Below are positions 1-62,476 of a DNA stretch of 64,000 nucleotides, piece by piece. Each line of letters opens with the position of its first letter. The first letter of the stretch is position 1. The notes beneath the pieces are model-generated. The model was not told where the DNA came from. It searched no databases and was given only the letters and a program-made list of their open reading frames with translations. The DNA is from an uncultured Gammaproteobacteria bacterium (GTDB lineage: Bacteria > Patescibacteriota > Patescibacteriia > Magasanikbacterales > UBA922), in contig CAZFTR010000001.1 in assembly GCA_964522405.1 (NCBI GenBank), positions 4,602-68,601 on the forward strand, written 5' to 3'. A program made the translations under genes and the position numbers.

Positions 1-106
1 ATTTTACTCCGCGTTGATATTCGTTTACCTGGCGGATACTGATAACTATTATCAGTAGTACGAAGCCGATGGCGTATCCCATATATTTTAATTAAGGATT
101 AAATTG

Positions 107-178
107 TGGGTCTGCAAGGAATCGAACCTTGATCTAAAGCTTAGAAGGCTTCTATTCTATCCGTTGAACTACAGACCC
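107..178 (-). tRNA. tRNA-Arg (anticodon TCT)
   Basis: The reverse complement GGGTCTGTAGTTCAACGGATAGAATAGAAGCCTTCTAAGCTTTAGATCAAGGTTCGATTCCTTGCAGACCCA folds as a cloverleaf: 7-bp acceptor stem GGGTCTG/CAGACCC, T-arm CAAGG-TTCGATT-CCTTG, anticodon loop CTTCTAA. CCA is not encoded. Confidence 0.8.
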
Positions 179-218
179 TTGATTTGTGTAATGAGTTTAT
201 ACTATTTTAGTCTTTTTG

Positions 219-4400: not shown

Positions 4401-7400
4401 AGAAGTATTTGTAGATGGTGTAAAAGTGGATACAAACATTATAAGAGATCAGAGTTGGACATCTCTTGAAAATGATGAACCAATTACAGTGGGTTCTGGG
4501 AATGGCGCCTTTTATTACAAGGGTTTAATTGATGAAGTTGCTGTCTATAGTCGTGCTTTATTGGATGAAGAAGTCCTAGATAGATACAAACGTGGGGCTG
4601 TTCGTGTTAAGTATCAAATTCGCTCATGCAATGACAGTGCTTGTGACGGTGAAACATATATGGGGCCGGATGGAACAGCAAGTACATATTATTCAGAATT
4701 ACAAAATAGTTTTTATTCAACTCCGGCCATAGGGCTTGCGAGTGTTCCGAATAATACGTACTTTCAGTATAAGGCAATATTTGAAACAGAAAACGCTTCA
4801 TATTTACCAGAAATATCATCAGTAACAGCAGGCCCAGATCATCAATCAATTGGTACATTTGAATTGATGCCAGCTAAGGCGTCAGCAGTATCATTTGCAA
4901 ATATAGACAGCTTCACAGATCAGGATGTTGGATTGATTACCGGTATAAATGATCCAGTGCCATACTACCAAATAACAAACCAAGGTGATCAAGAAATGCC
5001 TTCTTGGTATTTTTGGAATGGTTCAAGCTGGGCACAAACTTTTAACCCGGATGATTCCAATACTGAGTCAGAAATAAATACAAACATATCACAATTTTCA
5101 ACAGACATTGGAACTGGAAAATTCCTTTGGAAAGCATTTTTAAAAGTTATAGAAGCAGCAAAGAGTCTCAAGTTGTTCCAAGTAGAAGTAGATTACAATG
5201 CGCCTCCTACAGCTAATGTACTTGAAACAAAAGGGTCAGCAGTATATTTTGATGGGGAGAATGATTATATAACAATTCCTGATTCAGAAGGTTTTAATTT
5301 TGCAGGAAAGACGGCAAGTGTAGCCTTTTGGTTTAAGGTGCCTAATATTGAAATAATAAATCACATGATTGATCGTCAGGAGGGTGGATATCCTGGAGCA
5401 GGTTGGTATATAGGAATAAGACCAAATGGTAGATTGCACATAAATCATAGAGCCACAGATGACACTATTAATCTTTACTCAACAGCTCTTGTCAACGATA
5501 ATCAATGGCATTTCGGAGTGATAACCATTGATTCAGCTGATAATTTAGCAACAATGTATGTGGATGGAGTATTAAACTCAACCGATACCTTTGAGGGATT
5601 GATAGATAAAAATGATTCTTTCTTTATTGGTACTACTGGTGGTGGAAATTCGTCATATTATTTTAAAGGTTCAGTAGATGAAATAGCTTTTTATAATTAC
5701 AGTCTTACTCAGGAAGAAATAGACTTGTATTACAATTCAGGTAATGGCAGACGCGGTTTAGCTTCGGACAATGGATTAATTTCTGGTTGGAATTTTGACG
5801 AAGGAGCTGGAGATACCGCAAAAGACTATGGAATAAATGCCAATAATGGAGAATTATACAATGGCGCAACTTGGGTTCCAGGAAAGATTTCAGAGACAAC
5901 AAATATGTATGGTCCATATCCATATTTTTCAAGTATCTTTAATGATACCAAAGATAGTTATAAATCAGCACTTAGTTTTGATGGTGGCGGAGGATATGTT
6001 GAACTGGGAAAGAAGTTAGACGAAGAAAATATTACGGTTTTAGCTTGGATAAAGCTGGATGAACATAATTATTTTAATTATATAACCAGTAATTCCAGAG
6101 ATTGTTGTGCTAAATACGATGGGGATGAACTTAAGGTCAATGAAGGTGGTAGGCTTAGTGGTAGGATTTGGAATAATGATCCTGCAATTAGTGATTGGAA
6201 TTTAGTTAATGCAAAACTTGTTTCAAATCAGGTTTTAGCACTAGATACTTGGTACCAAGTAGCCTTTACATATGATGGCTCAACCATGGCTCTTTATGTG
6301 AATGGTGAACTTGATAATACTAAGGCCTCTACTCTCGGTATTGGTCAACCGTCTTCGTTTAATAGAACAATTGGAGCGATGGCAATGAGTCCGCATAATT
6401 ATAATTTTAGAGGTGATCTAGATGAGGTATCAATTTATGATCGTGCTCTTACAGCAGAAGAAATAGCAACTCATTATAACGGCGGTAATGGAAGATATGG
6501 TTTGGCAACAGATAGTGGATTAATAGGAGGTTGGCATTTTTATGAAGGTGCTGGAAATGCTGTGCAAGATTATAGTCCATACGGCAATCATGGAACAATA
6601 AAAAATAGTCTAGAATGGACCACAGGAGTTGTAAATGATCATGATTACGCCAACAAAGCTCGCATCCAAGTAAGTACAGATCCAAATTTTGAAAATATTA
6701 CTCACTGGGATTCAGGAGTTGAAGGTACAACACTTCCAAATTTTGTAGTTGCTTCTGAAAGATCAAAAGATATCAAATATGGCTCTCTTGGAAATGGTCC
6801 AATAATAGATTCGTTTAGTATGGCTGATGGGGACATTACCTATTATTGGCGTATAAAGTATTGGGATCATCATGGAGCAGAGGGAATATGGTCAGCTACA
6901 AGCAGTTTTACTATGCTTGACGCACCGGTTGCTCCTGGATCTGTTTCTGCTGCTAGAGTGTCAGACAATGAATTTACAGTTGGTTGGCAAGATCTTTCAA
7001 CTACAGAAGATAAATTTGTTTTAGAAAGAGACTACACACTCGGCGCTGGTGGATTTATGGGTTGGCAAAAGCTTACGGATTTAGCTCCAAACATAACCAA
7101 TTATACAGATAGTTCTACAGAAGTTGATTCAAAATACAAATATCGAGTAAAGGCAGTAAACCAAGCAGGTGAGTCAATTTATACAGAAGATCCGATAGAG
7201 CATTTCACCTCACCAAAGGCGCCTACCAGTGTAAGCTCAACCTATGATGGAGAAAATGCATTTACTGTTTCTTTTACTGATACTTCAGCAATTTCAAATA
7301 TACACGATGTAGAGAGATGTGATGATCAGATTTGTGACAATAATATCTATATGGCTGTAAGTGGTTCACCTGTTTCCACCTCGACTTTTCAAGATGCAGG

Positions 7401-10826: not shown

Positions 10827-10900
10827 TTTTCTAAAAAAATTATAAACAGTCGCATTTCAAATGTGACTTTTTTGCTTTTAAAAACTATTACTTAAAAATT

Positions 10901-10972
10901 GCTTCGCCGTCCTCGCCTCTCTTGCTAATCTGCTTTCAGCATTAGCAAGGAGTCTGCGGATTGTCTCATCAA
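10901..10972 (+). repeat. copy 1 of a ~70-nt conserved intergenic element (candidate structured-RNA motif). The other copies are at 36644-36712 and 62304-62372
   Basis: Conserved 5' flank gcttcgccgtcctcgcc, a hairpin with stem CTTGCTAAT/ATTAGCAAG and constant loop CTGCTTTCAGC, and conserved 3' flank ctgcggattgtctcatc. Confidence 0.6.
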
Positions 10973-11039
10973 TCTTTAAGTAATACTTTTTAAAAGCAAA
11001 AATAAACTATATCTTGACCCAGCACCATAAGCCAGAGGG

Positions 11040-22456: not shown

Positions 22457-22591
22457 AATATATTGTTTATATTTAACTAGAAAAAATACTGTGATTATAT
22501 TGTAGCATAGAGATAGTTTGTGATAAAGGGAGTTTATGATTAGGTGAAATTGTGTTATAGTTTAACCAATATCGACTACATGGGGAGATGT

Positions 22592-22756
22592 ATGGTTTCC
22601 AGGTTGGGAAAGGAGCCGGTGGTGCTGGTCAAGGTTGTCTGGGGCGGGCTCAGCCCGGAGGATATTGCGGTTTACCGTCAAATCGCTAGGGACACAGTGG
22701 AGCGTTCCAAGCAAAATCGCTGCCATGGATGCGGCAGACCAAAGAAGGGGGAATGA
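22592..22756 (+). CDS. GC-rich small ORF (54 aa), possibly the product of a ~260-nt GC-rich transcript; could instead be a non-coding RNA
   Basis: A TG-extended -10 (tgtTATAGT) near 22545-22556, SD GGGGAGA 5 nt before ATG 22592, and an intrinsic terminator at 22795-22822. The protein MVSRLGKEPVVLVKVVWGGLSPEDIAVYRQIARDTVERSKQNRCHGCGRPKKGE has no recognised family. Confidence 0.35.
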   Translation: MVSRLGKEPVVLVKVVWGGLSPEDIAVYRQIARDTVERSKQNRCHGCGRPKKGE

Positions 22757-22794
22757 TGGGGGGCGCCACTCCATCTCGGATTGGCAAACTCGAA

Positions 22795-22822
22795 AAAACA
22801 TGAGAGAATCATGTTTTTTTGA
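22795..22822 (+). terminator. intrinsic terminator
   Basis: aaaaaaCATGAgagaaTCATGttttttt. Confidence 0.65.
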
Positions 22823-22843
22823 TATTAAATTTATCAAAACAAA

Positions 22844-22959: not shown

Positions 22960-23631
22960 CTAGGCATCGATGGCCTCGAAGATCTGGGATCTGGGGCGGT
23001 CGGGGAGGGCGCGGGGCATGGCGTCGAGGGTCGTCATGTCCGCGTACCAGGCCTGCATGTAGCCGGTGGGACGGTGTTGGTCAGCGCTCGGCGCCGAGGC
23101 CTGGGCTCGGCTCTGGAGCAGGACGGCATTGAGCCGTTCCGGGTCGTTCTGGAACATCCAGAGCAGGAACTTCATCTGAAGCGCCTCCTCCTGGCTCATC
23201 TGGGGGATCTGGCCCGGACTGACCTTGGAGATCCGCTGACCCATGGTACGGAACAGGCCGTCGGCAGCCCTCAGCGCGGCCAGACGGTGCATCATGTTCT
23301 GGTTGTCCGGTTCCACCACTTGACTGCTCTCTTCGAGCGAAGCCCGCACCTTTTCCGGAATCTCTTCGCCGGCGGTTTCGTTGCCAGTGAAGATCAGGCG
23401 GTAGCGTGTCCGTTGACCCACGGGGATCTCGAGAATCAGTGCCAGCGGCGGGTTTTGGGCGATGGTGTACTCCAGGTAACACTCGATCATGTTTTCCGGA
23501 TCCTTGACTCCGGAGTCAGGGGGCTTGCTGTCTTCGTACGACTTCATGGCATTGTGCCAGTGCCAGAGAGTCAAGAAGAAGCCCAGGATCAGGACTGTGA
23601 TGAGGAGAGTCAGGAGGGTGAGAGAGTCCAT
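22960..23631 (-). CDS. GC-rich hypothetical protein with an N-terminal TM anchor (224 aa)
   Basis: Start MDSLTLLTLLITVLILGFFLTLW is preceded by AAGGAGG. Amino-acid composition is protein-like, whereas the overlapping plus-strand ORFs are G/R/L-rich antisense artefacts. About 58% GC. Confidence 0.55.
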   Translation of the reverse strand: MDSLTLLTLLITVLILGFFLTLWHWHNAMKSYEDSKPPDSGVKDPENMIECYLEYTIAQNPPLALILEIPVGQRTRYRLIFTGNETAGEEIPEKVRASLEESSQVVEPDNQNMMHRLAALRAADGLFRTMGQRISKVSPGQIPQMSQEEALQMKFLLWMFQNDPERLNAVLLQSRAQASAPSADQHRPTGYMQAWYADMTTLDAMPRALPDRPRSQIFEAIDA

Positions 23632-23759
23632 ATCGTGCCTCCTTGAGGCTTCCGGTTCTAGTCTGTTCAGTATTGTTGTCTTTTTTTGATAAAAAGTCAA
23701 GTCTGGAGTTTAGATTGACAAAACAACAATTTTGTCCTAATATGGGTATACAATTATAA

Positions 23760-23935
23760 AAGCGCAATACTCGCTATCAACGAGGATTCTGAGTCTCAGA
23801 AGCGCTGAAAGAAGAAAAACTTATATAAAGTTTAGTAGAATTTTCCGGGTAAGCCCGTAATAGCAGAAATTAAGAGCCACTTTGGAAGTGAGATGGTACC
23901 GCCCGATATTGGGTTCTCATGTGAGTGGTTTTTTA
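23760..23935 (+). promoter_or_regulatory. candidate T-box riboswitch leader of ileS
   Basis: A ~180-nt structured leader contains GAGAUGGUACCGCCCG, which resembles the T-box core (UGGUACCGC, 23895-23903), then a hairpin plus U-run near 23905-23934. ileS is the classic T-box-regulated gene. An Ile codon candidate (ATC, 23776-23778) sits in a loop context. Confidence 0.5.
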
Positions 23936-24083: not shown

Positions 24084-27053
24084 ATGCCTTACGAATCAAA
24101 TAAACATGAACTTGAAATAAAAAAGTTCTGGGACAACAACAAAATTTTTGAAAAATCTATAAATGAGCGTCCGGAAGATCAGCCCTATGTTTTTTATGAT
24201 GGTCCACCATTTGCAACCGGCTTGCCACATTATGGACATATAGTTGCCAGTTTGATGAAAGATGTTGTTCCCAGATATTGGACTATGCAAGGAAAGCGGG
24301 TTGAGCGTCTTTGGGGTTGGGATTGTCATGGTTTGCCGATTGAAAATATTGTTGAAAAAGAAATTGGATCAAAAAGTAAACAAGATATTGAAGAAATGGG
24401 AGTTGAAAAATTCAATGAGTCCTGTCGCTCAAAAGTTTTACATTATATAGATGAATGGAAAAGGACTATTCAAAGACTTGGACGCTGGGTTGATATGGAC
24501 AATGCCTACAAAACCATGGACAAAGATTATATGGAGTCAGTTTGGTGGGTTTTCAAAGAGCTTTGGGACAATGGTTTTGTTTATAAAGGATATAAATCAA
24601 TGCATGTTTGTCCACGTTGTGAGACAACACTTTCTCAGCAAGAAGTAAGTGAAGGTTACAAAGACATAAAAGATCTTTCCGCAACTGTAAAGTTTAAAAT
24701 TACCTCTACAATTTCAGATATTCATCAAGACCTGGGTGTGTGTAATGATCTCTTTGTTCTAGCTTGGACAACTACCCCTTGGACACTTCCTGGAAATGCC
24801 CTTTTGGCAGTTGGTGAGGATATTGAATATACAGTTGTTAAATTTGAAGGCTCTTGTTATGTGGTTGCCAAAGAAAGATTAATTGAAGTTTTTGATGAAA
24901 GAGAATTTGAAGTTGTTCAGCAATTAAAAGGAAAAGACCTGTTAGGTTTGGAATATGAGCCATTGTTTCCATATTATACTGATACAGAAAATGCTTTTAA
25001 GGTTGTGGCAGGAGATTTTGTAAGCACAGAAGAAGGAACAGGCGTGGTGCATATAGCTCCGGCTTTTGGTGAGGATGATTATCAAACAGGAAAAAAAGAA
25101 AAAACCGGCTGGGTCCAGCATGTTTCAATGAATGGAAAATTTAAGCCGGAAGTTGCAGATTTTGCAGGTCAGCAAGTTAAGCCAATAGAAGATCCTCAAA
25201 AAACAGATATAGAAATAATTAAATGGCTTGCTCACAATGAAAAGTTATTTTCAAAGAAAAAATATCTACATAGTTATCCGCATTGTTGGAGATGTGACAC
25301 CCCTCTAATAAATTACGCAACAGATTCCTGGTTCGTAAATGTAGAAAAATTAAAAAAGGACGCGCTTAAACATGCCAAAGAAATAAATTGGTCTCCAGAA
25401 CATATGAAAGAGGGGCGTTTTGGGAAGTGGCTAGAAGGAGCACGAGATTGGTCAATTTCTCGCCAGCGTTTTTGGGCATCAGTAATTCCAATTTGGGAAT
25501 GTGATAAGACAGGTGAATTTCATGTTATCGGTTCTGTAGAAGAACTTGAGAAATTAACCGGAGAAAAAATAGAAGACCTACATAAGCATACAGTAGATAA
25601 ACTAACTTGGAAAAATCAAAAAACAGGAGGAACTATGAAACGAATTCCAGATGTTCTTGATTGTTGGTTTGAAGCAGGTTCAATGCCTTACGCCCAAGTT
25701 CATTATCCATTTGCCAATCAAGAAAAATTTGAAGCAAGTTTTCCAGCAGAATTTATTGCCGAAGGACAAGATCAAACACGAGCCTGGTTTTATTATCTGC
25801 ATATTATTGCAACAGGTGTAAAACAAAAACATGCATTTAACAATGTGGTGGTAAATGGAATAGTTCTAGCAGAAGACGGAAAGAAGATGAGTAAGAAATT
25901 ACAAAATTATCCAGACCCAATGGTTGTGCTGGAGAAATACGGAGCAGATGCGCTTAGATACTACTTGGTGAGTTCACCGGTGATGCAAGCAGAAACTTTG
26001 AATTTTTCAGAAGAAGGTGTTCGAGAAGTTTTTAATAAGGTTGTCAATACACTTTGGAATGTAGGTAGTTTTTATGAGATGTTTGCAGATGAAAATTCAA
26101 AGTTCGATTTAGAATTGGCAAAGAATTCAAAAAATGTTTTGGATAAATGGATACTTGCCAAACTACATAGATTGCTTGAAGAAGTTACAAAAGAAATGAA
26201 TGAATACAGACTTAATGATGCATCTCGCCCAATTTTAGATTTTATATTAGATCTTTCACAGTGGTATGTGCGCAGATCAAGAGATAGATTTAAAGGTGAT
26301 GATGAAGAAGATAAAAAAGCAGCACTTGCTACGCTCCATGAAGTTCTTTTAACTCTTTCAAAAATCATGGCACCGTTTACTCCGTTTATTGCAGAGAAGA
26401 TTTATAAAGAAGTTGGTGGTGAGAAAGAATCTGTTCATTTGGATATGTGGCCAGAGGTGGATCAAAATATTTTGCTAGCAAACACGAATCTCTTAGTGGA
26501 TATGGAATCAGTCAGAGAAGTAGTTAAGCTTGGAAATTCTCTTAGAAAAGAAAACTCATTGAAAGTTAGACAGCCGCTTGCAAGTTTAAAAGCAGTTGCT
26601 ACTCTCTCAGGAGATAAAGATTATCTTGAGCAATATCAAAAAATTATTTCAGAAGAATTAAATATTAAGAAAGTTGAGTTAAGAAATTTACCTGGAAATA
26701 AAGAAATGGAAGAGATGAGAAGTTTGGCAAATGATAAAATTAAAGTTGCCGAAGATCAAAGATCTATCGTAGTCCTTAACACAGAAATAACCCCACAACT
26801 CGCCAAAGAAGGACTTCTCCGCGAAACAATCCGCGCCATAAATCAAATCAGAAAACAACAAGGCTTGATAATGCATGACCAAGTTCTTGTAGAATTTTCA
26901 ACAGAAGATAAAGTATTAAATGAAATCTTTACAAAAGCAGAATTTGCAGAAGAATTAAAAAAACAAACACTCACAAGTGAAATCAAATCAGGTGGAACTG
27001 AAGAAATAGAAATAGATAAAAGAAAAATTAAGATAATTGTGAAAAAAGCGTAA
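24084..27053 (+). CDS. ileS: isoleucine--tRNA ligase
   Basis: HIGH motif PHYGHI, KMSKS motif KMSKKL, WSISRQRFWAS and the Zn-binding CPRCE segment. 989 aa. Confidence 0.9.
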   Translation: MPYESNKHELEIKKFWDNNKIFEKSINERPEDQPYVFYDGPPFATGLPHYGHIVASLMKDVVPRYWTMQGKRVERLWGWDCHGLPIENIVEKEIGSKSKQDIEEMGVEKFNESCRSKVLHYIDEWKRTIQRLGRWVDMDNAYKTMDKDYMESVWWVFKELWDNGFVYKGYKSMHVCPRCETTLSQQEVSEGYKDIKDLSATVKFKITSTISDIHQDLGVCNDLFVLAWTTTPWTLPGNALLAVGEDIEYTVVKFEGSCYVVAKERLIEVFDEREFEVVQQLKGKDLLGLEYEPLFPYYTDTENAFKVVAGDFVSTEEGTGVVHIAPAFGEDDYQTGKKEKTGWVQHVSMNGKFKPEVADFAGQQVKPIEDPQKTDIEIIKWLAHNEKLFSKKKYLHSYPHCWRCDTPLINYATDSWFVNVEKLKKDALKHAKEINWSPEHMKEGRFGKWLEGARDWSISRQRFWASVIPIWECDKTGEFHVIGSVEELEKLTGEKIEDLHKHTVDKLTWKNQKTGGTMKRIPDVLDCWFEAGSMPYAQVHYPFANQEKFEASFPAEFIAEGQDQTRAWFYYLHIIATGVKQKHAFNNVVVNGIVLAEDGKKMSKKLQNYPDPMVVLEKYGADALRYYLVSSPVMQAETLNFSEEGVREVFNKVVNTLWNVGSFYEMFADENSKFDLELAKNSKNVLDKWILAKLHRLLEEVTKEMNEYRLNDASRPILDFILDLSQWYVRRSRDRFKGDDEEDKKAALATLHEVLLTLSKIMAPFTPFIAEKIYKEVGGEKESVHLDMWPEVDQNILLANTNLLVDMESVREVVKLGNSLRKENSLKVRQPLASLKAVATLSGDKDYLEQYQKIISEELNIKKVELRNLPGNKEMEEMRSLANDKIKVAEDQRSIVVLNTEITPQLAKEGLLRETIRAINQIRKQQGLIMHDQVLVEFSTEDKVLNEIFTKAEFAEELKKQTLTSEIKSGGTEEIEIDKRKIKIIVKKA

Positions 27054-27149
27054 TAAAAAAGTTTCCCCTCCTTTTTAAGTAGGGGCTATGCCACGTCAGT
27101 CGCGACTGACGTGGTTAGGGGGTGGTTTACTCTACACTTCTAACAAATA

Positions 27150-27176
27150 AAAAACACCCGAATCGGGTGTTTTTTA
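27150..27176 (+). terminator. intrinsic terminator after ileS
   Basis: aaaaaaCACCCGaatCGGGTGtttttt. Confidence 0.8.
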
Positions 27177-27679
27177 AATGGTGGTTTTTATGATCGCGCC
27201 ACACCGGAATTCACAATAGTTTATAAAATCCGGTGTGGCGGCGCGATCAAGTGTCTGTTCACGAGGTTGTTGTCCCTCGTTTACCAGAATCAATCCACCA
27301 CCTCTCCCTTATTTACTACTAACGCTCTTCTGGCGCTTTCGTTTTATTCTCGATAGGGAGCTGTTCTAATCGCGTTGCACGATCAGTCTAACGGGTACAG
27401 CCATGAACGGCTTCACGAACAGGCTGTTCGTATCGATCCAAACTGTTCCTGCATTGCACAGAAAACGACTGGTTTCGCGCTTTTTTGTGTGCGCGTGCTT
27501 CAGTCTCAGAATGATCGGAGTGGGTTCTTGCCGGGGTAGGTGCTACAGTCAATATATCTTGCCTTGGAATGAAGTCGAACCGGGCTTCAATCTTTGGTTT
27601 GATACTCGTGTAGAGCCTTATTCAGTCGTTCGGGTGACTGTCACACGTAGTAGGATCAGATCCTCTACGGTGCTGGTAG

Positions 27680-28141
27680 CTATCGCTTGCCGTACTTTTT
27701 ACGCAGGCTGCGACGCTCGATTTCGCGCTCCAGGAGATCCACCGCTTTTTTGGCTTCCTTGAGCCACCAGTGGCGGATGTCATGGATGTTGCCTTCTTTC
27801 AGGCACTTCCAGAGGAGCCAGAGCCAGTACTGGGTACCGTCTTCTTCGCCGTAGATCAGCGTTTCGAACGGTTCGGGGAGGTTGAAGCCCCCGTCCTTGT
27901 GCTCGGTCATCTCGAATCCCTTGTCGCCATTCTCAACTGCTGCGGCGACCAGGTCGACGAGTCTGTCCTCTCTGCGGTAGAGCTGTCTCTCCTCGCGCAT
28001 GACAGCGAGGAAATCAGTCCAGTCCTCCATGTACGCGGGGACGTAACTGAGGAACTGCTCACTCATCTCACCCACCCAGTGCTCGTGCCTATCAGCAACG
28101 AATTCCGTGTAGGAGAGATCCAAAAACTCTCTTCTATCCAT
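27680..28141 (-). CDS. GC-rich hypothetical protein (153 aa)
   Basis: Protein-like, Trp-rich acidic sequence. SD GGAG lies 7 nt before the ATG, and the 5' leader has a GC hairpin CCCCGGC-acggg-GCCGGGG at 28162-28180. About 57% GC. Confidence 0.55.
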   Translation of the reverse strand: MDRREFLDLSYTEFVADRHEHWVGEMSEQFLSYVPAYMEDWTDFLAVMREERQLYRREDRLVDLVAAAVENGDKGFEMTEHKDGGFNLPEPFETLIYGEEDGTQYWLWLLWKCLKEGNIHDIRHWWLKEAKKAVDLLEREIERRSLRKKYGKR

Positions 28142-28569
28142 CTAACACTCCGAAGCTACTGCCCCGGCCCCGTGCCGGGGAGCTCCGAGATCTCTCTCGG
28201 TTATATCTAGCAAATTTTGCAAAATATAATCGAGAGAGATTTTTGAGTTTTAAATGTCAGCTTTCAAATTATACAAACGAATTATATAATTTGGAACTGT
28301 CCCGAGGCTGAAGCTTCGGGTGAGTTTCTGGCGCTGTTGCGACCTGAGTCGCGAGGCGCAGTTGGTCTTGCTCTTAGAGTGTTGGGGGAGCTGATTGACC
28401 CTACCCCTTCTACTGATTTCGAACTTGTCGCACAGCCGGTTTTCTGGCTCTCTACCTACTCAATTGCCAACTCGTGGCATCCACATCTAGATTTCCCCGA
28501 AAGTTCAGAGAAACTCTCGGTCCACAGGAGCGGAGTTAAATCCGCATCTTCATCGATTAGAAATCGATG

Positions 28570-28872
28570 CTACTTGCTTCCCTCCTGGTGTTTCACCAGA
28601 CGTCGATGGACTTTCTCATCGGCGTAGTCCAGCTCGAGTCGGAGCATCGCGTCCTCGAAGGAGCTCAGCGCTTTCTCGACGCTGTCCGGCGTCGTCGTCT
28701 CGGTGGTGGTGATCGACTGGGAGATCGGATCGGCCCATGCATGGAGGATGCGCGTGGCACGTTTTCCGTACTTGTGGCGCGCGCCTTCGGGCATGTTGCG
28801 CATGACAGAGGTCAGTCGGTTCTCGAGCGCCTCGAGACGGACCTGGAAAAGATATTGCTCGCTTTTCTTCAT
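28570..28872 (-). CDS. GC-rich hypothetical protein (~100 aa; start ATG 28872 chosen by analogy to its paralogous leader, alternative GTG at 28893)
   Basis: A leader paralogous to the 153-aa gene: hairpin CCCTGGt-aaagg-GCCAGGG, then gcagtRgcttYggag, then 7-9 nt, then ATG. Confidence 0.45.
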   Translation of the reverse strand: MKKSEQYLFQVRLEALENRLTSVMRNMPEGARHKYGKRATRILHAWADPISQSITTTETTTPDSVEKALSSFEDAMLRLELDYADEKVHRRLVKHQEGSK

Positions 28873-29111
28873 CTTTCTTTTCTCCAAAGCCACTGCCCTG
28901 GCCCTTTACCAGGGAGCCCAAGAGATTTCCCTTGGTTAAGCGAAAAAAGCAGATAACCGCTTAAATTAGGCAAAAGCCTAAATTTTCGCTAAATCAAGGG
29001 AAATTTCAGTGAATTGTCAATAACGGCTAACAATTAATTATAGCAGGTTTTGACGGTTTTGTCAATGAGTGGTAAAATTAGATAACGACTTCAAAAATTA
29101 ACTAAAAAATT

Positions 29112-30596: not shown

Positions 30597-30625
30597 GTAG
30601 GGATCGCTTACGCGTTTATTAGGCT

Positions 30626-30670
30626 GGCTTGGGGTATTCGGATTTACGGATGATTCAGATAATACGGATC
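30626..30670 (+). repeat. copy a of a second dispersed intergenic repeat family (modules GGCTTGGGGTATTCGGAT and GGATTTACGGAT..ACGGATC)
   Basis: Both modules recur at 56858-56943 in a different order. The region is noticeably more GC-rich than its surroundings. Confidence 0.6.
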
Positions 30671-32909: not shown

Positions 32910-33185
32910 AGGGGGAGGGGGATGGGAGGGTTTAAGTATGTGTGAAATTTGGGAGAGTGCGAATTAGCGAATTATATATATTTTAATAGGTTAATAAAAT
33001 TTGGCCTATTTCACATAACGTTAGGGATATACGAAGTTTTTCTGCAGCGTAGCGGAAGAAAAATTTGGGTGAAGCCCGAGCCGAGGGCTGAACCGTATAT
33101 CCCTTGTTATGTGCCCCGACGACTGAAAGGAGGAGAGCGCAGCGTGGTTCGACCGAAGGGAGAAAGTCCGCCGTAGCCCACCGTC

Positions 33186-36582: not shown

Positions 36583-36643
36583 ATATGTTTTTATATTTAT
36601 TTCTTCTTTGGTTATAATTTTAGAGTATATTTTATTAAACTAG

Positions 36644-36712
36644 CTTCGCCGTCCTCGCCTCTCTTGTTGATTTGCTTTCAGCATCAACAAGGTGGCTGTG
36701 GATTGTCTCATC
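36644..36712 (+). repeat. copy 2 of the ~70-nt conserved intergenic element
   Basis: gcttcgccgtcctcgcctct-CTTGTTGAT-ttgctttcagc-ATCAACAAG-gtggctgtggattgtctcatc. The stem carries compensatory changes relative to copy 1. Confidence 0.6.
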
Positions 36713-36805
36713 TACTTTAATAAAATATACTCTAAAATTATAACAACTGATTTCAATAAAAAGGGATCTTATTAGAATCATCCCGCCTATATTGTAGTTT
36801 GTAAA

Positions 36806-47425: not shown

Positions 47426-49228
47426 ATGTCAGAAAAAGATATTTTAGTTGATTCAATTGCTAAAGAGCAAAATGGGTCAAAGAAAGAAAATTCAATTGTT
47501 AGATCAAGACATTCTTTGTCACATCTTATGACAATGGCGGTTTTGGATATGTATCCTGATACACCACTTGGCATTGGTCCGACAATTGAAAAAGGTTTTT
47601 ATCAGGATTATGATTTTGCAGAACCTGTGGCTGAAAATATTTTGCCAAAATTAGAAAAAAGAATCAAAAAATATCTTAAGCAAAAGATAGATTTTGTACA
47701 AAGCAATGGAAATTTTGAAGATGCGCTTGAGTTTTACAAAGATGATCCCTACAAGACTGAAATAATCAATGAGTTAAAAGAAAAAGGTGAAAAGCAAGTA
47801 AGTTTTTATGATTCTGATTGGTTCCATAATCTTTGTGGTGGTCCTCATGTTGGAAATACTTCTGAAATAAATCCAGATGCTTTTAAACTTGTCAAAATTG
47901 CCGGAGCTTACTGGAGAGGTGATGAAAAAAATAAAATGTTGACTAGGATTTATGGAGTTGCTTTTGAGACCAAAGAAGAACTTGACGCTTATCTTGAAAT
48001 GATGGAAGAAGCCAAGAAAAGAGATCATAGAAAGCTTGGAAAAGAACTGGATCTTTTTACTTTTTCCGAGCTTGTTGGGCCTGGTCTTCCGCTGTGGACC
48101 CCCAAAGGAACAGCACTACGAAATACATTAGATGATTTTGTTTGGCAGCTTCGTCAAGAAAGAGGTTATCAAAAAGTTACAATACCTCATATTACAAAAA
48201 AAGAATTATATGAAAAAAGTGGACATTGGCAGAAATTTGCTGATCAATTATTTCATATCAAAACCAGAGAAGGTCATGAATTTGCCATGAAGCCAATGAA
48301 CTGCCCGCATCATACACAGATTTATAATCATTTATCCAGGAGTTATCGCGACTTGCCGCAGAGATATGCAGAAACTACAACATGTTATCGAGATGAACAA
48401 ACCGGCGAACTTCATGGAATTTCTAGAACTAGAGCCTTTAGCCAAGACGATGCCCATGTTTTTTGTAGAACTTCACAAGTAAAGGAAGAATTTCTCAAGA
48501 TTTGGGATATTATTGATATTTTCTACAAAGCTACTGGTTTTGAGAAACTCGAAGTTCGCTTATCACTTCATGATCCGGATAATTTTGATAAATATTTAGG
48601 AACTCCAGAACTTTGGAAAGATGCAGAAAATCAATTAAGAGAGTTGGCCGAGGAACGGGGAGTGGAGTATAGAGAAGATCTTGGAGAAGCGGCATTTTAT
48701 GGACCAAAAATAGATTTTATTGCCAAAGATTCCATAGGAAGAGAGTGGCAAGTAGCTACAATACAGCTCGATATTAATATGCCAGAGAGATTTGATCTCA
48801 CTTGTATAAATGAAAAAGGAGAATCTGAAAGAATAGTTATGATTCACGCAGCAATTATGGGTTCTATTGAAAGATTTTTTTCAATATTCATAGAGCATCA
48901 TGCCGGCGCATTTCCAATTTGGCTTTCTCCAGCTCAGGTTCATTTTGTCCCGGTTTCAAATGAAAATCATCTCCAGGGTGTGAAGAAGTTCGCAGAAGAA
49001 CTAAAAGACTTGGGAATTAGGGTAAGTGTTGACAGTGCTGATGAAACAGTTGGAAAGAAAATTAGAAAGGCCTCAGGACAGAAAATCCCTTATGTTGTAG
49101 TTGTTGGTGATAAAGAGTTGGGTGGTGGAGATTGGACAGTAAGAGTTCGAGGGCAAGAAGAACAGATAGCAATATCCAAAAAAGAATTTATTGATAAAGT
49201 CTTAAAAGAAATTGAAGAAAAGAAATAA
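47426..49228 (+). CDS. thrS: threonine--tRNA ligase
   Basis: Class II motifs, FAMKPMNCPHH zinc site, and RTRAFSQDDAHVFC. 600 aa. Confidence 0.9.
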   Translation: MSEKDILVDSIAKEQNGSKKENSIVRSRHSLSHLMTMAVLDMYPDTPLGIGPTIEKGFYQDYDFAEPVAENILPKLEKRIKKYLKQKIDFVQSNGNFEDALEFYKDDPYKTEIINELKEKGEKQVSFYDSDWFHNLCGGPHVGNTSEINPDAFKLVKIAGAYWRGDEKNKMLTRIYGVAFETKEELDAYLEMMEEAKKRDHRKLGKELDLFTFSELVGPGLPLWTPKGTALRNTLDDFVWQLRQERGYQKVTIPHITKKELYEKSGHWQKFADQLFHIKTREGHEFAMKPMNCPHHTQIYNHLSRSYRDLPQRYAETTTCYRDEQTGELHGISRTRAFSQDDAHVFCRTSQVKEEFLKIWDIIDIFYKATGFEKLEVRLSLHDPDNFDKYLGTPELWKDAENQLRELAEERGVEYREDLGEAAFYGPKIDFIAKDSIGREWQVATIQLDINMPERFDLTCINEKGESERIVMIHAAIMGSIERFFSIFIEHHAGAFPIWLSPAQVHFVPVSNENHLQGVKKFAEELKDLGIRVSVDSADETVGKKIRKASGQKIPYVVVVGDKELGGGDWTVRVRGQEEQIAISKKEFIDKVLKEIEEKK

Positions 49229-49330
49229 ACATTTTAATTATAATTGAGCCGCTTCCAGAGTATTGGAGGCGGTTTTTTTATTCACAGTCTAATTCTTGAA
49301 ATTATTATCAACATCATGTAGAATATTTGT

Positions 49331-49533
49331 CTGTTCCTTTTTTGGCAGGTAACAGGGGGGCGTGATGATCATCATCTGAGATAGAGTCTGGAGACCTGAT
49401 TCAGGCGCCGCGTTCGCGCGGCAAAAAGATTTTTTTCCAGACAGCGCGTTCCCGGTTTGGGTAGTTTACCACTCCGGGGGCGTCGCAGGAATAAATTAGA
49501 CAAATCAAAAAACCGGCTTAGTGCCGGTTTTTT
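49331..49533 (+). ncRNA. candidate small RNA (~200 nt) with a consensus promoter and an intrinsic terminator
   Basis: The thrS terminator (49244-49278) is followed by TTGAAA(49296-49301)-17nt-TAGAAT(49319-49324). A GC-rich ~200-nt region follows with hairpins (GGCGCCGCGUUCGCGCGGC; GUCUGGAGACC...), ending at aaaaaACCGGCttagtGCCGGTtttttt (49510-49532). No ORF of 60 aa or more. Confidence 0.5.
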
Positions 49534-49540
49534 GATTGAT

Positions 49541-50653
49541 TTATGCACTTGCTTGTTGAGCAGAAGCTTGTTCTGTACTCATTTGTTCTTCGGCTTGCAA
49601 GTCTCTTATGGCCTGCTCTACTTCTATGCTACGAATATCTCCTTTGAGAAGTGCTATGTGTTCTGCCATTTCTTCTTTTGAAAATCCTTTAGATTTTATT
49701 ACTCGGTATTCATTTCCTTTGGCATCTACAAATTTTCCGGTTTTTTTAATTTCGTCTACAGTGGCACTTATGGCATTTTGTCGAGCTTTTTCATTGGCAA
49801 AATCTTGCTCATCTACAAGTTTGGTAGCTTCTTCTATAATTTGATCTTCACTCATTTCAGCAGTACTCATGATTTGTCCTGATTCTTTTATTTCTTGGGC
49901 AATTTTTCTAATAGCCTTCAGTTTTTCTTCTTCATTGGCATAATCTTGCTGGTCAGCAATTAGCGCAGCTGTTTGAATAATTTCTTTTTCATCCATTCCT
50001 GTTTCCAGATTTTCAATAACAGCAGATTTTAGATCATGAGTTTGATCCAATTGATCTGTAGATGCGTCAGCATATTGATCTCCGGTAAGTTTTTCCAGAA
50101 ACCCTTCAAGTTGATTATATTTACCTCTGATTTTCCTTAGGCTTAATATTACTTCTGCAAGCTGCTCAATATCTACATTTGGATCTTTTTCAAGCTCAAT
50201 GCGTTTTTCATCGAGATTTGCAATTAGTTCCAGGTAATCAAAAATTTTTTCATTTGCTTGCTCGATTAGCTGAGTAACTTCTGCAGTTTTTTCTTCTGCT
50301 ATTCTCTCCCCGATGTGAATCACATCTCTACCTCCAGGAGTTTCTAAATCCGAGTCATCAGCAGTAGCCATGGTCTCTTCACTTTGTCTTCGAATTTCAG
50401 CAAGAGATAAATTTTGCCTCCTGCTGAGAGGATCTGTTTCTTCAGAAGTGGCTGGTTTTCCGATGGGTTGATGCAATTCAATTAATTCTCCACCTTGTGT
50501 AGGATTGGGAGTTTGCTGTTCAGTTTGGGGTTCGTCTTCACGGTATTGATTAGGATCAATACCAGCCTCGCTTAAGGCTTGATTGATATCTGCCTGAGGT
50601 AGGTCTACTCTCCCGCTAGGGGAAATATTATATCTTTTTTCAGGTTTAACCAT
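49541..50653 (-). CDS. hypothetical acidic coiled-coil protein with internal repeats
   Basis: 370 aa. Repeated ...DQQDYANEEEKLKAIRKIAQEIKESGQ and DEQDFANEKARQNAISATVDEIKKTGK blocks. Confidence 0.55.
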   Translation of the reverse strand: MVKPEKRYNISPSGRVDLPQADINQALSEAGIDPNQYREDEPQTEQQTPNPTQGGELIELHQPIGKPATSEETDPLSRRQNLSLAEIRRQSEETMATADDSDLETPGGRDVIHIGERIAEEKTAEVTQLIEQANEKIFDYLELIANLDEKRIELEKDPNVDIEQLAEVILSLRKIRGKYNQLEGFLEKLTGDQYADASTDQLDQTHDLKSAVIENLETGMDEKEIIQTAALIADQQDYANEEEKLKAIRKIAQEIKESGQIMSTAEMSEDQIIEEATKLVDEQDFANEKARQNAISATVDEIKKTGKFVDAKGNEYRVIKSKGFSKEEMAEHIALLKGDIRSIEVEQAIRDLQAEEQMSTEQASAQQASA

Positions 50654-50661
50654 AAGTATAT

Positions 50662-52959
50662 TTAATTTGAAGATTCCGGAGTTTGATCAGGATTGTTTGC
50701 TGAGTTAAAAGCACTGTCTACGTCTTCTGGCTTTCCTGTAGAAAGTGGCTTGTCACCCACAGCTCCGAGAAGAGTTTTTCTTCTTAGTGCTTCTTTTCTT
50801 TTTGCAGCTGTGGTAAGCGGTTTGGCAGTTCTAGGATCAAAGCGTTTGCCAACCACGACTCTACCTTCTGGTCTCTTTGGGCTGGCTTTTACGCCAGGCA
50901 CTTCCAAATAACGAGCATCTTGCACAATGGCTGCTCTATCTGCGTCTGTAAGTTCTTTTATCTTTGGTCTTCCTTGAGTGTCTGTAGTCTCTCTTTTTCG
51001 ACTTGCAGGTCTTTTTGCTTTGGCTGGCTTTGATTGTGGTGGTTTTCTTGAGGCTGTATCTTCTTCTTCATAATCTTCATATAAATCAGCGTCAGCAGTG
51101 CCTGTATTAACTCTAGGCACTTTCAAATAGGGAGCATCTTGTACAATGGCTGCTCTATCTGCGTCTGTAAGTTCTTGTACTTCTCCAATTTCCGGAGGTA
51201 GTTCAGGTGGTCCTTCTTTTGGTTCAAATGTTTTTCTTTTTCTTGCTCCAAGTCCTGTAGGTCTTTTTGTTTTGGTAGGAGTTTTTGCCACTCTTACTCT
51301 TTTTGGGGCTTTTGCTGGTTCTGGTTTTTCTTCTGGCTCAGCTGTTTCAAGTGGCTCGCCAGTGTCAACTCGACGCTCAGTTTTTCCTGGACTCTCTTTG
51401 CCTCCAGGTACTTCGAGGTAAGGAGCATCTTGAACTAGCCTGGCACGATCTTCGTCTGTAAGCTCCTGTGGTTCAGGTTCAAAAGATACTTCTCCTGTCT
51501 TAGGTTGCGATTGATCTTTTTGTGTGGTAGGTTCTGCTTCAGCTTTTGTTGGAGCTTCAGTATCTGCAGGTGTCATAGGGCTAGTTACTTGAGCTTCTAA
51601 TGGTTCTTTTGGTTCTGGTGGAGGACCATCCGTAGATTCTTCCGTTGGGATTGGAAGCTCTTCTGGTTTTTCATCCGGTTTAATTATTTTAAGAATACGT
51701 TCTGTCTCTGCTTCTGCTTCTGCTCCATAGTCTGGAGCTAATGCTACTTTTCCTTCTGTTGGTGGTTGCATTGCAGCTCTTGCTTTGGCATCTGCTAATC
51801 CATCTACTGCTGAATCTGTTTTTAAAATTGCACCCATTCCCAGGCCTGCTGCAATTGCTGCTGCCCAGCGCATAAATTTTCCTTGTTCTTTAATTCCGCC
51901 TCCACCTCCGCCACCTTTTTTTCTTTGTGGCATAGGGATTACATCTGCGGCTTGGTCTGTTTGGGGTGTTTCTGGTTCTGGCTCAGTTGTGGTTTGTTCA
52001 GATTCTCTGGTAGCAAAAGCTTCAGTAAGTTGACTTACGAGGTTTGCGAAATCTTGATTGTTTGCAAGAAGTTTGTTATAAAGTCTTCCAGATCCAAATC
52101 TAGGTTCTCCATTTGGCTTCAGTTTTACGGTTTTTTGTTTTCCGTTTAATTCAAAAGCAACTGAATTTATTTGATCTATGATTTGTTCCGGGGTTAGTGG
52201 GGGAGTTTCGATTTCCTCTATGCTCTGTTCAAGTGCTTCAGCTCTGGCGTGAAGTGCCGCTGCATCTGCCTTTATTTCTTCTGGAGTGACATCTGCTGAT
52301 CCAGCTTCTAATGCTTGTATTTTTGCTTCTAGGGCAGCAGTTTGAGCTTCAATTGAATCATCAACTTGCGGGGTTTCTACACCCTCCACCACAGTTGCAA
52401 TTTTTGAAGTAGGCATTGTTCTTTCTTCTGGTACAATCTCTGCGAATGGAATTTCTTCTTCCTCATCCGGTACAATCTCTGCCAATGGGATTTCCTCCTC
52501 AATTTCTTCAGCCTTCGGGGCTTCTAGAACTTCAGCTCCGGTGATTCCTCCTTTGGCAACAGCTTTATCAGCTTCTTCTTGTGAAAGAATATCTGCATCT
52601 GTTATTTCTGTGACAGATTCTTTAAGTCTTTCCAGTTTTTCTACAGGCTGTATAGGTTTTCTCTCTGAGGGGCCTTCAAGCGCAGTTAGAAGTGTGTCAA
52701 TTCTAGTTTGCGCAGCCATAACTTTTTCTGCTATATCGGGATCCATCATTTCCATAGGTTCTGTTGGTACAAGCGCCTCATCTTCTGGATCTAAGCTCTT
52801 TTCTAACTTGATAGCGCCATCTTTAAAAAGCTCAACTCCTGTTTCTTTTTTTGTTTGTTCAATAATGCCTTTTATCGCTTGTTTTACCTCTGTGCTGGTT
52901 ATTTCACCTAATTTTATTTTTTGATTGACTTCTTCACCACTAGTTTCTCCTGATTGCAT
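50662..52959 (-). CDS. hypothetical acidic Pro/Glu/Thr-rich protein with four copies of an ELTDADRAAIVQDAPYLEVPG repeat and one TM segment
   Basis: 765 aa. Repeats LTDEDRARLVQDAPYLEVPGG, ELTDADRAAIVQDAPYLKVP and ELTDADRAAIVQDARYLEVPG. TM segment MRWAAAIAAGLGMGAIL. A Gly8 tract is encoded by a G/C homopolymer-rich run. Confidence 0.55.
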   Translation of the reverse strand: MQSGETSGEEVNQKIKLGEITSTEVKQAIKGIIEQTKKETGVELFKDGAIKLEKSLDPEDEALVPTEPMEMMDPDIAEKVMAAQTRIDTLLTALEGPSERKPIQPVEKLERLKESVTEITDADILSQEEADKAVAKGGITGAEVLEAPKAEEIEEEIPLAEIVPDEEEEIPFAEIVPEERTMPTSKIATVVEGVETPQVDDSIEAQTAALEAKIQALEAGSADVTPEEIKADAAALHARAEALEQSIEEIETPPLTPEQIIDQINSVAFELNGKQKTVKLKPNGEPRFGSGRLYNKLLANNQDFANLVSQLTEAFATRESEQTTTEPEPETPQTDQAADVIPMPQRKKGGGGGGGIKEQGKFMRWAAAIAAGLGMGAILKTDSAVDGLADAKARAAMQPPTEGKVALAPDYGAEAEAETERILKIIKPDEKPEELPIPTEESTDGPPPEPKEPLEAQVTSPMTPADTEAPTKAEAEPTTQKDQSQPKTGEVSFEPEPQELTDEDRARLVQDAPYLEVPGGKESPGKTERRVDTGEPLETAEPEEKPEPAKAPKRVRVAKTPTKTKRPTGLGARKRKTFEPKEGPPELPPEIGEVQELTDADRAAIVQDAPYLKVPRVNTGTADADLYEDYEEEDTASRKPPQSKPAKAKRPASRKRETTDTQGRPKIKELTDADRAAIVQDARYLEVPGVKASPKRPEGRVVVGKRFDPRTAKPLTTAAKRKEALRRKTLLGAVGDKPLSTGKPEDVDSAFNSANNPDQTPESSN

Positions 52960-52962
52960 TTT

Positions 52963-53667
52963 TCAAATTTCAGCATTTAACAGATGATCTTTTCTCATTT
53001 GGGCCTGAGCTTCTCTTTGTCGATCTAATTCTTCTCTTTTAGTAGTTTCCTCAGCAGTATCTTCTGCAGCTCTACTATCTTTTCGTTCTTGAAGGGTTGC
53101 TCTAACCCTATCCAGCTCCTCTGCTGATTCTTCTTCAGTCATTTTCACGAAATCTGCAATTCTAGCTTCAGTATCTCTTGAGCCTTGCTCTAACTCTGCT
53201 CGAAATTTGGCCTCTCTTAGTCTTTCATCACTAATTCCTTTTTCCCCTTCAAGAAGCTTTTCTAGATCTTGTTCTCTCCTATCTGCTTCTGAAGCTGTTT
53301 TTGGTTGTCTTTTTCTCATTTCTTCAAAGGCCTTTTCATCAGCCACTTTGTCTTCTTCTGGGCTTGTCATGTCAAAGTCTGCAACAAATTTTTGATGTGC
53401 AGCTTCATCTTTTTCCTTTTGTTTTTTTTCTGCAGCTGTCAGAGATTTTCCCGGGTCCTCGCTTGTGGTAGGCTCTTTGGCATCTGGTACCAATTTAAGG
53501 CCGACTTTTCGAGCTTCTTCTGGCGTGACGCTTTCCGCCATTACTTGCGGCAATTGATCAAAAAAAGGAGTTCTCGATTGTTCCATTTTTTTAGCAGAAT
53601 TTCGTTCTGGCATATAATTGAAGTTAATATTACTTAGTATTTTAGCATAAAAAACCCATTTTGTCAA
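52963..53667 (-). CDS. hypothetical highly charged protein
   Basis: 234 aa, K/E/D/R-rich. Third member of a same-strand trio of low-complexity acidic proteins. Confidence 0.5.
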   Translation of the reverse strand: MTKWVFYAKILSNINFNYMPERNSAKKMEQSRTPFFDQLPQVMAESVTPEEARKVGLKLVPDAKEPTTSEDPGKSLTAAEKKQKEKDEAAHQKFVADFDMTSPEEDKVADEKAFEEMRKRQPKTASEADRREQDLEKLLEGEKGISDERLREAKFRAELEQGSRDTEARIADFVKMTEEESAEELDRVRATLQERKDSRAAEDTAEETTKREELDRQREAQAQMRKDHLLNAEI

Positions 53668-53808
53668 GTTTTTTGGCTAATTTTAGCAAAATTTATGCAG
53701 TTTTAGTCTTTTTTTGGCCTTGATTTTTAATTTATTTTCGTTTATAATAAGCTCCCAATAGCCTGAAAACTGTAATTTATCTATTCATTATCACCCAAAA
53801 GCAGTTTT

Positions 53809-56857: not shown

Positions 56858-56943
56858 CTGCGGATTTACGGATAATTGAAACGGATCATTGGCGCGTTGA
56901 TGAAACTGGCTTGGGGTATTCGGATAGATTATTTTATCCGAAT
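56858..56943 (+). repeat. copy b of the second dispersed intergenic repeat family
   Basis: ctgcGGATTTACGGATaATTgAaACGGATCattgg...ctGGCTTGGGGTATTCGGATagattattttATCCGAAT. The tail forms an 8-bp hairpin ATTCGGAT/ATCCGAAT. Confidence 0.6.
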
Positions 56944-62259: not shown

Positions 62260-62303
62260 ATGTTGTTTTGACTTTTTGCGTTTGATTTTTTCTCTAAATC
62301 CTC

Positions 62304-62372
62304 CTTCGCCGTCCTCGGTTCTATTGTTGATCTGCTTTCAGCATCAACAATGTGCCTGCGGATTGTCTCATG
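62304..62372 (+). repeat. copy 3 of the ~70-nt conserved intergenic element
   Basis: ttcgccgtcctcggttct-ATTGTTGAT-ctgctttcagc-ATCAACAAT-gtgcctgcggattgtctcatg. The stem is again kept by compensatory changes. TGACTTTTTGC lies upstream, as in copy 1. Confidence 0.6.
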
Positions 62373-62476
62373 ATTTTTTAGAGAAAAAATCAATATAATT
62401 CATAAATTTATTCTACTACACATTTCAGAGATCAAATATAGATCTTTCAGCTATCTCCGAAGATGGATGCCCTGCG

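Follow-up and report, generated by a model that had tools for sequence, protein, structure and literature searches.

A candidate lineage-specific small RNA between thrS and a convergent orphan gene in a CPR/Patescibacteria genome

Within the 64,000-nt stretch of DNA analyzed here (the window), which belongs to a CPR/Patescibacteria bacterium, the interval downstream of the threonyl-tRNA synthetase gene thrS is tentatively read as the gene of a small non-coding RNA, ~175-210 nt long, that is specific to this lineage and would be transcribed independently from the + strand, with a probability of roughly 45%. In the sense of a new, unvalidated member of an ordinary kind, an intergenic sRNA candidate is plausible at this position. 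Its anatomy, excess folding stability, strand asymmetry, lack of an ORF, lack of a known family, and lineage-specific location are directly seen. A sequence-only reading of the locus had already proposed an independent, non-coding promoter-to-terminator transcript, and this remains the best reading, fitting everything that was computed; the 6S-like or housekeeping identity offered in the same proposal is not supported. The elements of the locus, in window positions, are as follows.

47426-49228, + strand: thrS (threonyl-tRNA synthetase), with the Pfam domains tRNA-synt_2b, HGTP_anticodon, and tRNA_SAD
49229-53808: lineage-specific insert of 4.6 kb between thrS and miaB, containing the candidate RNA and three minus-strand orphan genes
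49246-49275, + strand: intrinsic terminator-like hairpin of thrS, a 13-bp stem with 6 GC pairs, then TTTTTTT
49296-49324, + strand: sigma-70-type promoter-like site TTGAAA-17-TAGAAT, 10/12 matches, 17-nt spacer
49331-49502, + strand: candidate sRNA body, 51-53% GC, multi-branched fold, no ORF, no Rfam family
49503-49537, both strands: bidirectional intrinsic terminator, arms 49503-49517 and 49523-49537, 15 nt each, 100% complementary, 5-nt loop
49541-50653, - strand: convergent orphan ORF of 370 aa, acidic and of low complexity

The region is identical base for base in the Logan assembly, which was made independently; the organism, whose assembly comes from SRR8146440, also occurs in SRR8146441 and SRR31802803. 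The closest thrS elsewhere is only 68-70% identical and is found in Magasanikbacteria MAGs. The hairpin at 49246-49275 is the separator between thrS and the candidate RNA. Beyond the candidate, the insert encodes proteins of 370, 765, and 234 aa, all on the minus strand, acidic and of low complexity, one with an internal triple repeat; the 765-aa protein has a single hydrophobic segment and three repeats of a ELTDADRAAIVQDAPYLEVPG-like motif. No homologue of the three was found in searches of 5.8 billion proteins and of 1.84 billion cluster representatives, and no family match was obtained for their genes; the 370-aa ORF, which had no Pfam, PHROG, NCBIfam, or PADLOC match, recovered only itself among the 5.8 billion proteins. 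The boundaries of the insert are not marked by flanking direct or terminal inverted repeats, and no recombinase or transposase gene lies near the candidate element. On the + strand, thrS is followed only by miaB (53809), 4.6 kb away in this genome, which agrees with the earlier remark that the candidate has no downstream gene on its strand. The idea of a guide or partner RNA for the neighboring proteins was rejected, because these are acidic, of low complexity, and show no signature of a nuclease or reverse transcriptase. Near the start of the window, a tyrosine recombinase gene (219-1217, - strand; Phage_integrase domains) adjoins tRNA-Arg(TCT) at 106-178; the region 106-1217 could be an integration hotspot or contain a XerC/D homologue.

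The near-consensus promoter that had been reported after the thrS terminator corresponds to the promoter-like site at 49296-49324, matching 10 of 12 consensus positions, and from this site transcription is predicted to start near 49329-49333. Sites with at least 10/12 matches number 50 in the 128 kb of both strands of the window (3.9e-4 per position-strand), and by chance ~0.02 such sites in the correct orientation would be expected within the 60 nt preceding the element. The count of promoter-like sites in the local 2-kb region is not above that of shuffles (6 vs 4.8), and other genes in the window are also preceded by consensus promoters of the same type. The site follows the thrS terminator, precedes the structured core, and faces only the candidate element, with no + strand gene between it and the terminator at 49503-49537. 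The latter, described beforehand as strong and bidirectional, proved to be a perfect 15-bp stem with a mean pair probability of 0.97, flanked by A and U tracts, the U-tract extending to ~49545. It begins 10 nt past the last helix of the candidate RNA, leaves a gap of 3 nt to the stop codon of the convergent ORF (370 aa), and is common to both units; because the convergent gene needs a terminator anyway, it does not count as independent evidence of an sRNA.

The candidate RNA body has a GC content of 51-53% over ~170 nt, as compared with the window mean of 37%, so that the claimed GC-rich stretch of ~200 nt exists and only its figure of ~55% was slightly high. The segment 49355-49504, at 53% GC, lies at the 96th percentile of the 150-nt windows. 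According to the paper on the GC-IGR method (PMC8632094), structured RNA genes are known to stand out as long intergenic regions enriched in GC. The larger GC-rich islands elsewhere in the window are protein-coding and look foreign, so GC richness alone is weaker evidence in this genome. For the candidate unit itself, no credible ORF was found, as had been stated: every ORF of at least 20 aa crosses the promoter or the terminator, and no reading frame of the element shows coding remnants.

Folding of the + strand including the terminator gave an MFE of -88.7 kcal/mol (z -6.5 vs shuffles), the 175-nt core gave -66.1 kcal/mol (z -3.8 vs shuffles), and a 150-nt core window gave z -2.7. Seven 150-nt GC-rich coding controls from the same window reached z -1.8 to +1.1, which indicates that the excess stability of the core is not merely a GC effect. 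The MFE and centroid structures are both multi-branched, with four local domains, and contain the following elements.

49332-49338 (UGUUCCU) with 49487-49493 (AGGAAUA), + strand: P1, an uncertain closing helix of 7 bp, mean pair probability 0.45
49339-49344 with 49353-49358, + strand: weak G·U-rich helix
49364-49376, + strand: P3, small palindromic hairpin GAUGA-UCA-UCAUC, mean pair probability 0.77, containing GATC
49386-49442, + strand: P4, three-way-junction domain whose stem pairs GUCUGGAGA with UUUCCAGAC
49395-49405, + strand: P4a, hairpin CCUG-AUU-CAGG
49407-49422, + strand: P4b, hairpin GCCGCG-UUCG-CGCGGC with a cUUCGg tetraloop
49444-49486, + strand: P5, hairpin of 12 bp, two of them G·U, mean pair probability 0.99
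49458-49460 with 49469-49471, + strand: P5a, inner 3-bp helix, mean pair probability 0.93

The mean pair probabilities of P4, P4a, and P4b are 0.94, 0.91, and 0.99, and the stable local hairpins noticed in the sequence-only reading are reproduced throughout P4, P4a, P4b, P5, and P5a (0.91-0.99) in a core of z -3.8. By inspection, P1 has a possible competitor in a 5' hairpin formed by 49331-49337 with 49348-49355 (pair probability ~0.08). A 16-nt A/U-rich tail separates the 12-bp hairpin from the terminator; this tail, together with GGGGGGCGU and UGAGAUAGA, is single-stranded in the predicted fold. Directly after the G-run, the P3 palindrome holds a four-codon frame, AUG AUC AUC AUC UGA (49364-49381), most probably a side effect of the palindrome GATGATCATC and not a leader peptide.

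The + strand is favored by the cUUCGg loop, the G·U pairs, the lower MFE, and the orientation of both the promoter-like site and the U-tract. The + strand MFE lies 10 kcal/mol below that of the minus strand, and its helices include eight G·U pairs; on the minus strand, those in P4 and P5 turn into A·C mismatches and P5 is broken, and the tetraloop of P4b reads cUUCGg on the + strand and cGAACg on the minus strand. On the minus strand, the element would moreover lie beyond the terminator of the convergent gene, with no other good terminator to end it. Significant folding is seen on the minus strand as well (z -3.8 to -8.5), since most of the helices are local Watson-Crick palindromes.

Homologues were sought within 4 kb on either side of thrS in 80 related GTDB genomes. 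Neither nhmmer nor blastn detected the element near thrS in these relatives, the GC profile downstream of thrS showed nothing like it, and R1, a covariance model built from the single candidate sequence, retrieved no homologue from the 80 loci; the conservation across related genomes that had been suggested as a check is thus absent at these loci. In the relatives, the locus comprises pilB, a 382-aa gene, and thrS; miaB/miaA, along with a 223-aa gene, are found no more than 2.2 kb downstream. In four of these relatives (L002, L014, L019, and L049), miaB/miaA lie 0.03-2.2 kb from thrS, the thrS stop being at 5782 and the miaA start at 5883 in L002, and miaB starting 27 nt past thrS in L049. The element is missing near the thrS of relatives because it belongs to an insert that they lack, and its position in this lineage-specific insert makes a conserved housekeeping RNA unlikely. 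Synteny-guided retrieval is impossible, since the 370-, 765-, and 234-aa neighbors have no homologues, and the helices have no covariation support because no second sequence was found. The idea of an L20 leader, in which thrS would be followed by the infC operon, was rejected: infC-rplT follows thrS in only 3 of the 80 loci, is nearby on the opposite strand in one further locus, and is absent downstream here.

Wider searches were equally negative. The metagenome scan with GGGGGGCGTN{8,14}TCTGAGATAGAG returned 0 matches, and that with GGGGGGCGN{8,16}CTGAGAN{8,16}ACCTGAT returned 16, a number consistent with chance, none of which fits R1 or Rfam. Of four patterns applied to viral contigs, three gave no matches and one, the second, gave 14, at chance level and none fitting R1; BLAST against phages and plasmids yielded terminator-like fragments only, and a lookup of the same locus in other samples found none. 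No paralogue of the element was found within the window, where it occurs once.

Repeats of other kinds are present in the window. A 120-nt intergenic element occurs in three copies, 67-76% identical, at 10876-10995, 36618-36737, and 62278-62397; in two of them, 33-nt inverted-repeat arms 68 nt apart were detected, and the element resembles a MITE or a family of structured repeats. The 43-nt repeat GGATCGCTTACGCGTTTATTAGGCTGGCTTGGGGTATTCGGAT (81% identity) is found at 30601-30643 and 56883-56925, in both cases just downstream of the end of a + strand ORF.

The main rival to the sRNA reading is that the GC-rich stretch is a non-functional remnant, i.e., foreign or decayed DNA that came with the insert or lies at its edge, with incidental hairpins and hexamers and transcription that would be noise. 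We regard this as somewhat unlikely. It would agree with the position of the element at the boundary of a 4.6-kb insert that is missing in relatives and holds only orphan genes, with the foreign look of the other islands of 55-72% GC and their orphan genes, with the failure to find a homologue or paralogue, and with a regional count of promoter-like sites within shuffle expectation. However, the folding stability exceeds that of both the shuffles and the GC-rich coding controls, the helix probabilities are very high and include a canonical cUUCGg tetraloop, the 10/12 promoter match has the optimal spacer of 17 nt and points at the element alone, and coding remnants were seen in no frame. The location at an insertion boundary would also suit a DNA-level element, in which a cluster of palindromes at the thrS-insert junction provides protein-binding or recombination sites. 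Most of the helices are perfect short DNA palindromes (TGATGATCATCA, CCTGATTCAGG, GCCGCGTTCGCGCGGC), and the z-scores of the two strands are about equal; nevertheless, we consider such a function highly improbable, as no recombinase or transposase gene is nearby, no direct or terminal inverted repeats flank the insert, the element occurs only once in the window, and the G·U pairs make P4 and P5 better as + strand RNA than as DNA or minus-strand RNA.

Two further readings accept an RNA and differ in its kind. A cis-acting leader (a riboswitch or attenuator) would act either by read-through antisense to the convergent orphan operon or as a leader left stranded by the loss of its downstream gene on arrival of the insert, and we judge it improbable. 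An aptamer-like size, the multi-branched fold, and the terminator directly after it speak for this reading, as do the TPP-like CUGAGA and ACCUGAU, the two copies of GGGGGCG, in principle possible competitors for CGCGUUCC, and the frame AUG AUC AUC AUC UGA after the G-run, although that mini-frame is simply the palindrome GATGATCATC. The element is probably not a cis switch, because the 5' arm of the terminator has no partner, the alternative pairing costs ~23 kcal/mol (for a forced GGGGGGCG:CGCGUUCC pairing), and there is no + strand target gene before 53809; no antiterminator was found, the 5' arm is unpaired in nascent RNA folds 1..187, and the only matches to riboswitch or leader families are terminator-driven. 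It is extremely improbable that the candidate is a divergent member of a known family (TPP riboswitch, 6S, SRP RNA, RNase P RNA, or tmRNA), a reading that is already largely refuted. Its size of ~200 nt, its GC richness, and the succession of GGGGGGCG-hairpin-CUGAGA and ACCUGAU in TPP motif order invite the comparison, but the search against Rfam 15 over the whole window at gathering thresholds had a tRNA as its sole match. A local 401-nt search at E<=10 produced 30 weak matches, from which TPP, 6S, SRP, RNase P, and tmRNA were all absent; those of low E (rnk_pseudo, BASRCI337, Thr_leader, OrzO-P, and AgrB) were carried by the terminator hairpin and rejected as family assignments. The Rfam check that the sequence-only reading had recommended thus ended with no family at gathering thresholds and terminator-driven matches only at E<=10, and its view that the TPP words are superficial held up, both words being present and the TPP model giving no match at E<=10. 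ARAGORN detected no tmRNA, the fold is not rod-like, the C-run of P2 is missing, ACCUGAU closes a triloop hairpin and not a sensor arm, and the 16 metagenome loci with the same three words are not TPP riboswitches and match no model. The suggestion of a 6S-like or housekeeping RNA finds no support, given the lack of a matching Rfam model, the multi-branched fold, the absence of the element at the thrS locus in the 80 relatives, and its residence in a lineage-specific insert.

For the preferred reading, an independent sRNA, we infer transcription, RNA ends, and any trans-acting function as follows. RNA polymerase would start from the sigma-70-type promoter at 49296-49324, with a start site near 49331, and would stop at the terminator at 49503-49537, which would also end the convergent orphan gene. 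The transcript is predicted to fold into a weak closing helix or 5' hairpin, a palindromic hairpin, a three-way junction with cUUCGg, and a 12-bp hairpin containing G·U pairs. It would most likely act in trans, either by base-pairing through its single-stranded segments or by binding a protein with the junction domain or with these segments. The search for target complementarity within the window gave nothing convincing, the best match being 14 nt, A/U-rich, with a BLAST E of 0.03; whole-length duplex folding against start regions returned full-length duplexes, which are uninterpretable.

A second unit built like the candidate was observed at 22575-22825 on the + strand, with ~220 nt of 55-60% GC and a long-range closing stem. 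An extended -10 promoter-like sequence, TGTTATAGT, lies near 22551-22559, the terminator is at ~22794-22822, the folding z is -2.8, and no Rfam match was obtained at E<=1 besides terminator matches. This unit and the candidate share the rare adjacent 7-mers GGGGGCG and CCACTCC, in swapped order; their overall k-mer sharing is marginal (6-mers p ~0.01, 7-mers p ~0.1), and Smith-Waterman scores of the candidate against the other GC-rich intergenic regions of the window are at null level. That the two form a set of GC-rich, independently transcribed structured RNAs of one Magasanikbacteria lineage, unrelated to described families, seems quite unlikely. If true, such a set among GC-rich orphan islands would hint that an otherwise AT-rich, reduced genome has taken up a pool of RNAs and genes horizontally.

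Other regions of the window are GC-rich as well. On both sides of ileS, three minus-strand genes have a GC content of 55-72% (22960-23634, 27680-28141, and 28570-28881), each with a Shine-Dalgarno sequence and an ATG, and with AT-rich flanks. They had no Pfam, NCBIfam, PADLOC, or plasmid match, one being a singleton cluster, and they look like recently acquired foreign genes. Between GC-rich genes, the stretches 27054-27679 and 28142-28566 are non-coding, with 47-48% GC and no Rfam match at E<=0.01; a near-perfect long hairpin occupies ~27191-27250 of this non-coding DNA (150-nt window z -5.2). The 276-nt intergenic region 32910-33185 (48% GC) starts with the purine run GGGGGAGGGGGATGGGAGGG, has no Rfam match at E<=0.1, and folds with z -2.1 on the + strand. 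A T-box leader match at 23748-23921 on the + strand is sub-threshold (40.5 bits vs a gathering threshold of 93, E 1.8e-6); the ORF of a class I aminoacyl-tRNA synthetase (24084-27053, 989 aa) lies downstream of it and the promoter-like sequence TTGACA...TAATAT ahead of it, and it may represent a divergent T-box of a CPR bacterium.

The regulatory and structural RNAs of CPR/Patescibacteria, which none of the papers listed in a literature search treats, appear little explored. If expressed, the candidate would be a rare case of a lineage-specific structured sRNA in reduced, uncultured bacteria, and a target for metatranscriptome mining. As a single unconserved sequence without a functional handle, it is of value mainly as a catalogue entry. 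The result also removes two readings of the locus, namely an orphan TPP-like riboswitch and a missing 6S or housekeeping RNA of CPR bacteria.

In TPP riboswitches, the motif order is GGGGUGC-P3-CUGAGA and then ACCUGAU; P2 forms between the G-run ahead of P3 and a C-run soon past CUGAGA, and the pyrophosphate-sensor arm P4/P5 contains ACCUGAUCUGG...CCAGCG (conserved CUGG...CCAGCG). Such riboswitches precede a thiamine-related gene on their own strand and carry an expression platform. The candidate resembles RF00059 in that CUGAGA (CTGAGA, 49376-49381) comes after a small hairpin with a preceding G-run and ACCUGAU (ACCTGAT, 49394-49400) follows 12 nt on. Unlike in RF00059, CUGAGA is succeeded by UAGAGUCUGGAG, with no complementary CCC(C) to close P2, and GGGGGGCG is weakly paired through G·U pairs, or single-stranded, in the candidate fold. 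In place of a P4/P5 arm, ACCUGAU and the UCAGG after it form a 4-bp hairpin with a 3-nt loop, and the candidate has neither a same-strand regulated gene nor an antiterminator. The 6S RNA is an extended rod with a closing stem, a large central bubble, and a terminal stem. Similar in length to RF00013, and likewise an independent transcription unit (as predicted here), the candidate differs in the lack of a model match, in its multi-branched structure with a P1 of only 7 bp, and in not being conserved at the thrS locus of relatives; a 6S-like rod is impossible because both of its halves are G-rich and fold locally.

A generic bacterial intergenic sRNA gene has its own sigma-70 promoter and a Rho-independent terminator, spans 50-300 nt, and is non-coding. 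The candidate, with its promoter-like site, structured non-coding body, and intrinsic terminator between convergent genes, resembles this type, and it also shares the single-stranded segments between hairpins and the A/U-rich stretch before the terminator. Compared with a generic base-pairing sRNA, it is unusually GC-rich and multi-branched, and no relatives were found. The GC-IGR candidates described in PMC8632094 were accepted only with covariation among homologues, unlike the present single sequence. As in those candidates, we are dealing with a long GC-enriched intergenic region of an AT-rich genome, for which a stable structure is predicted.
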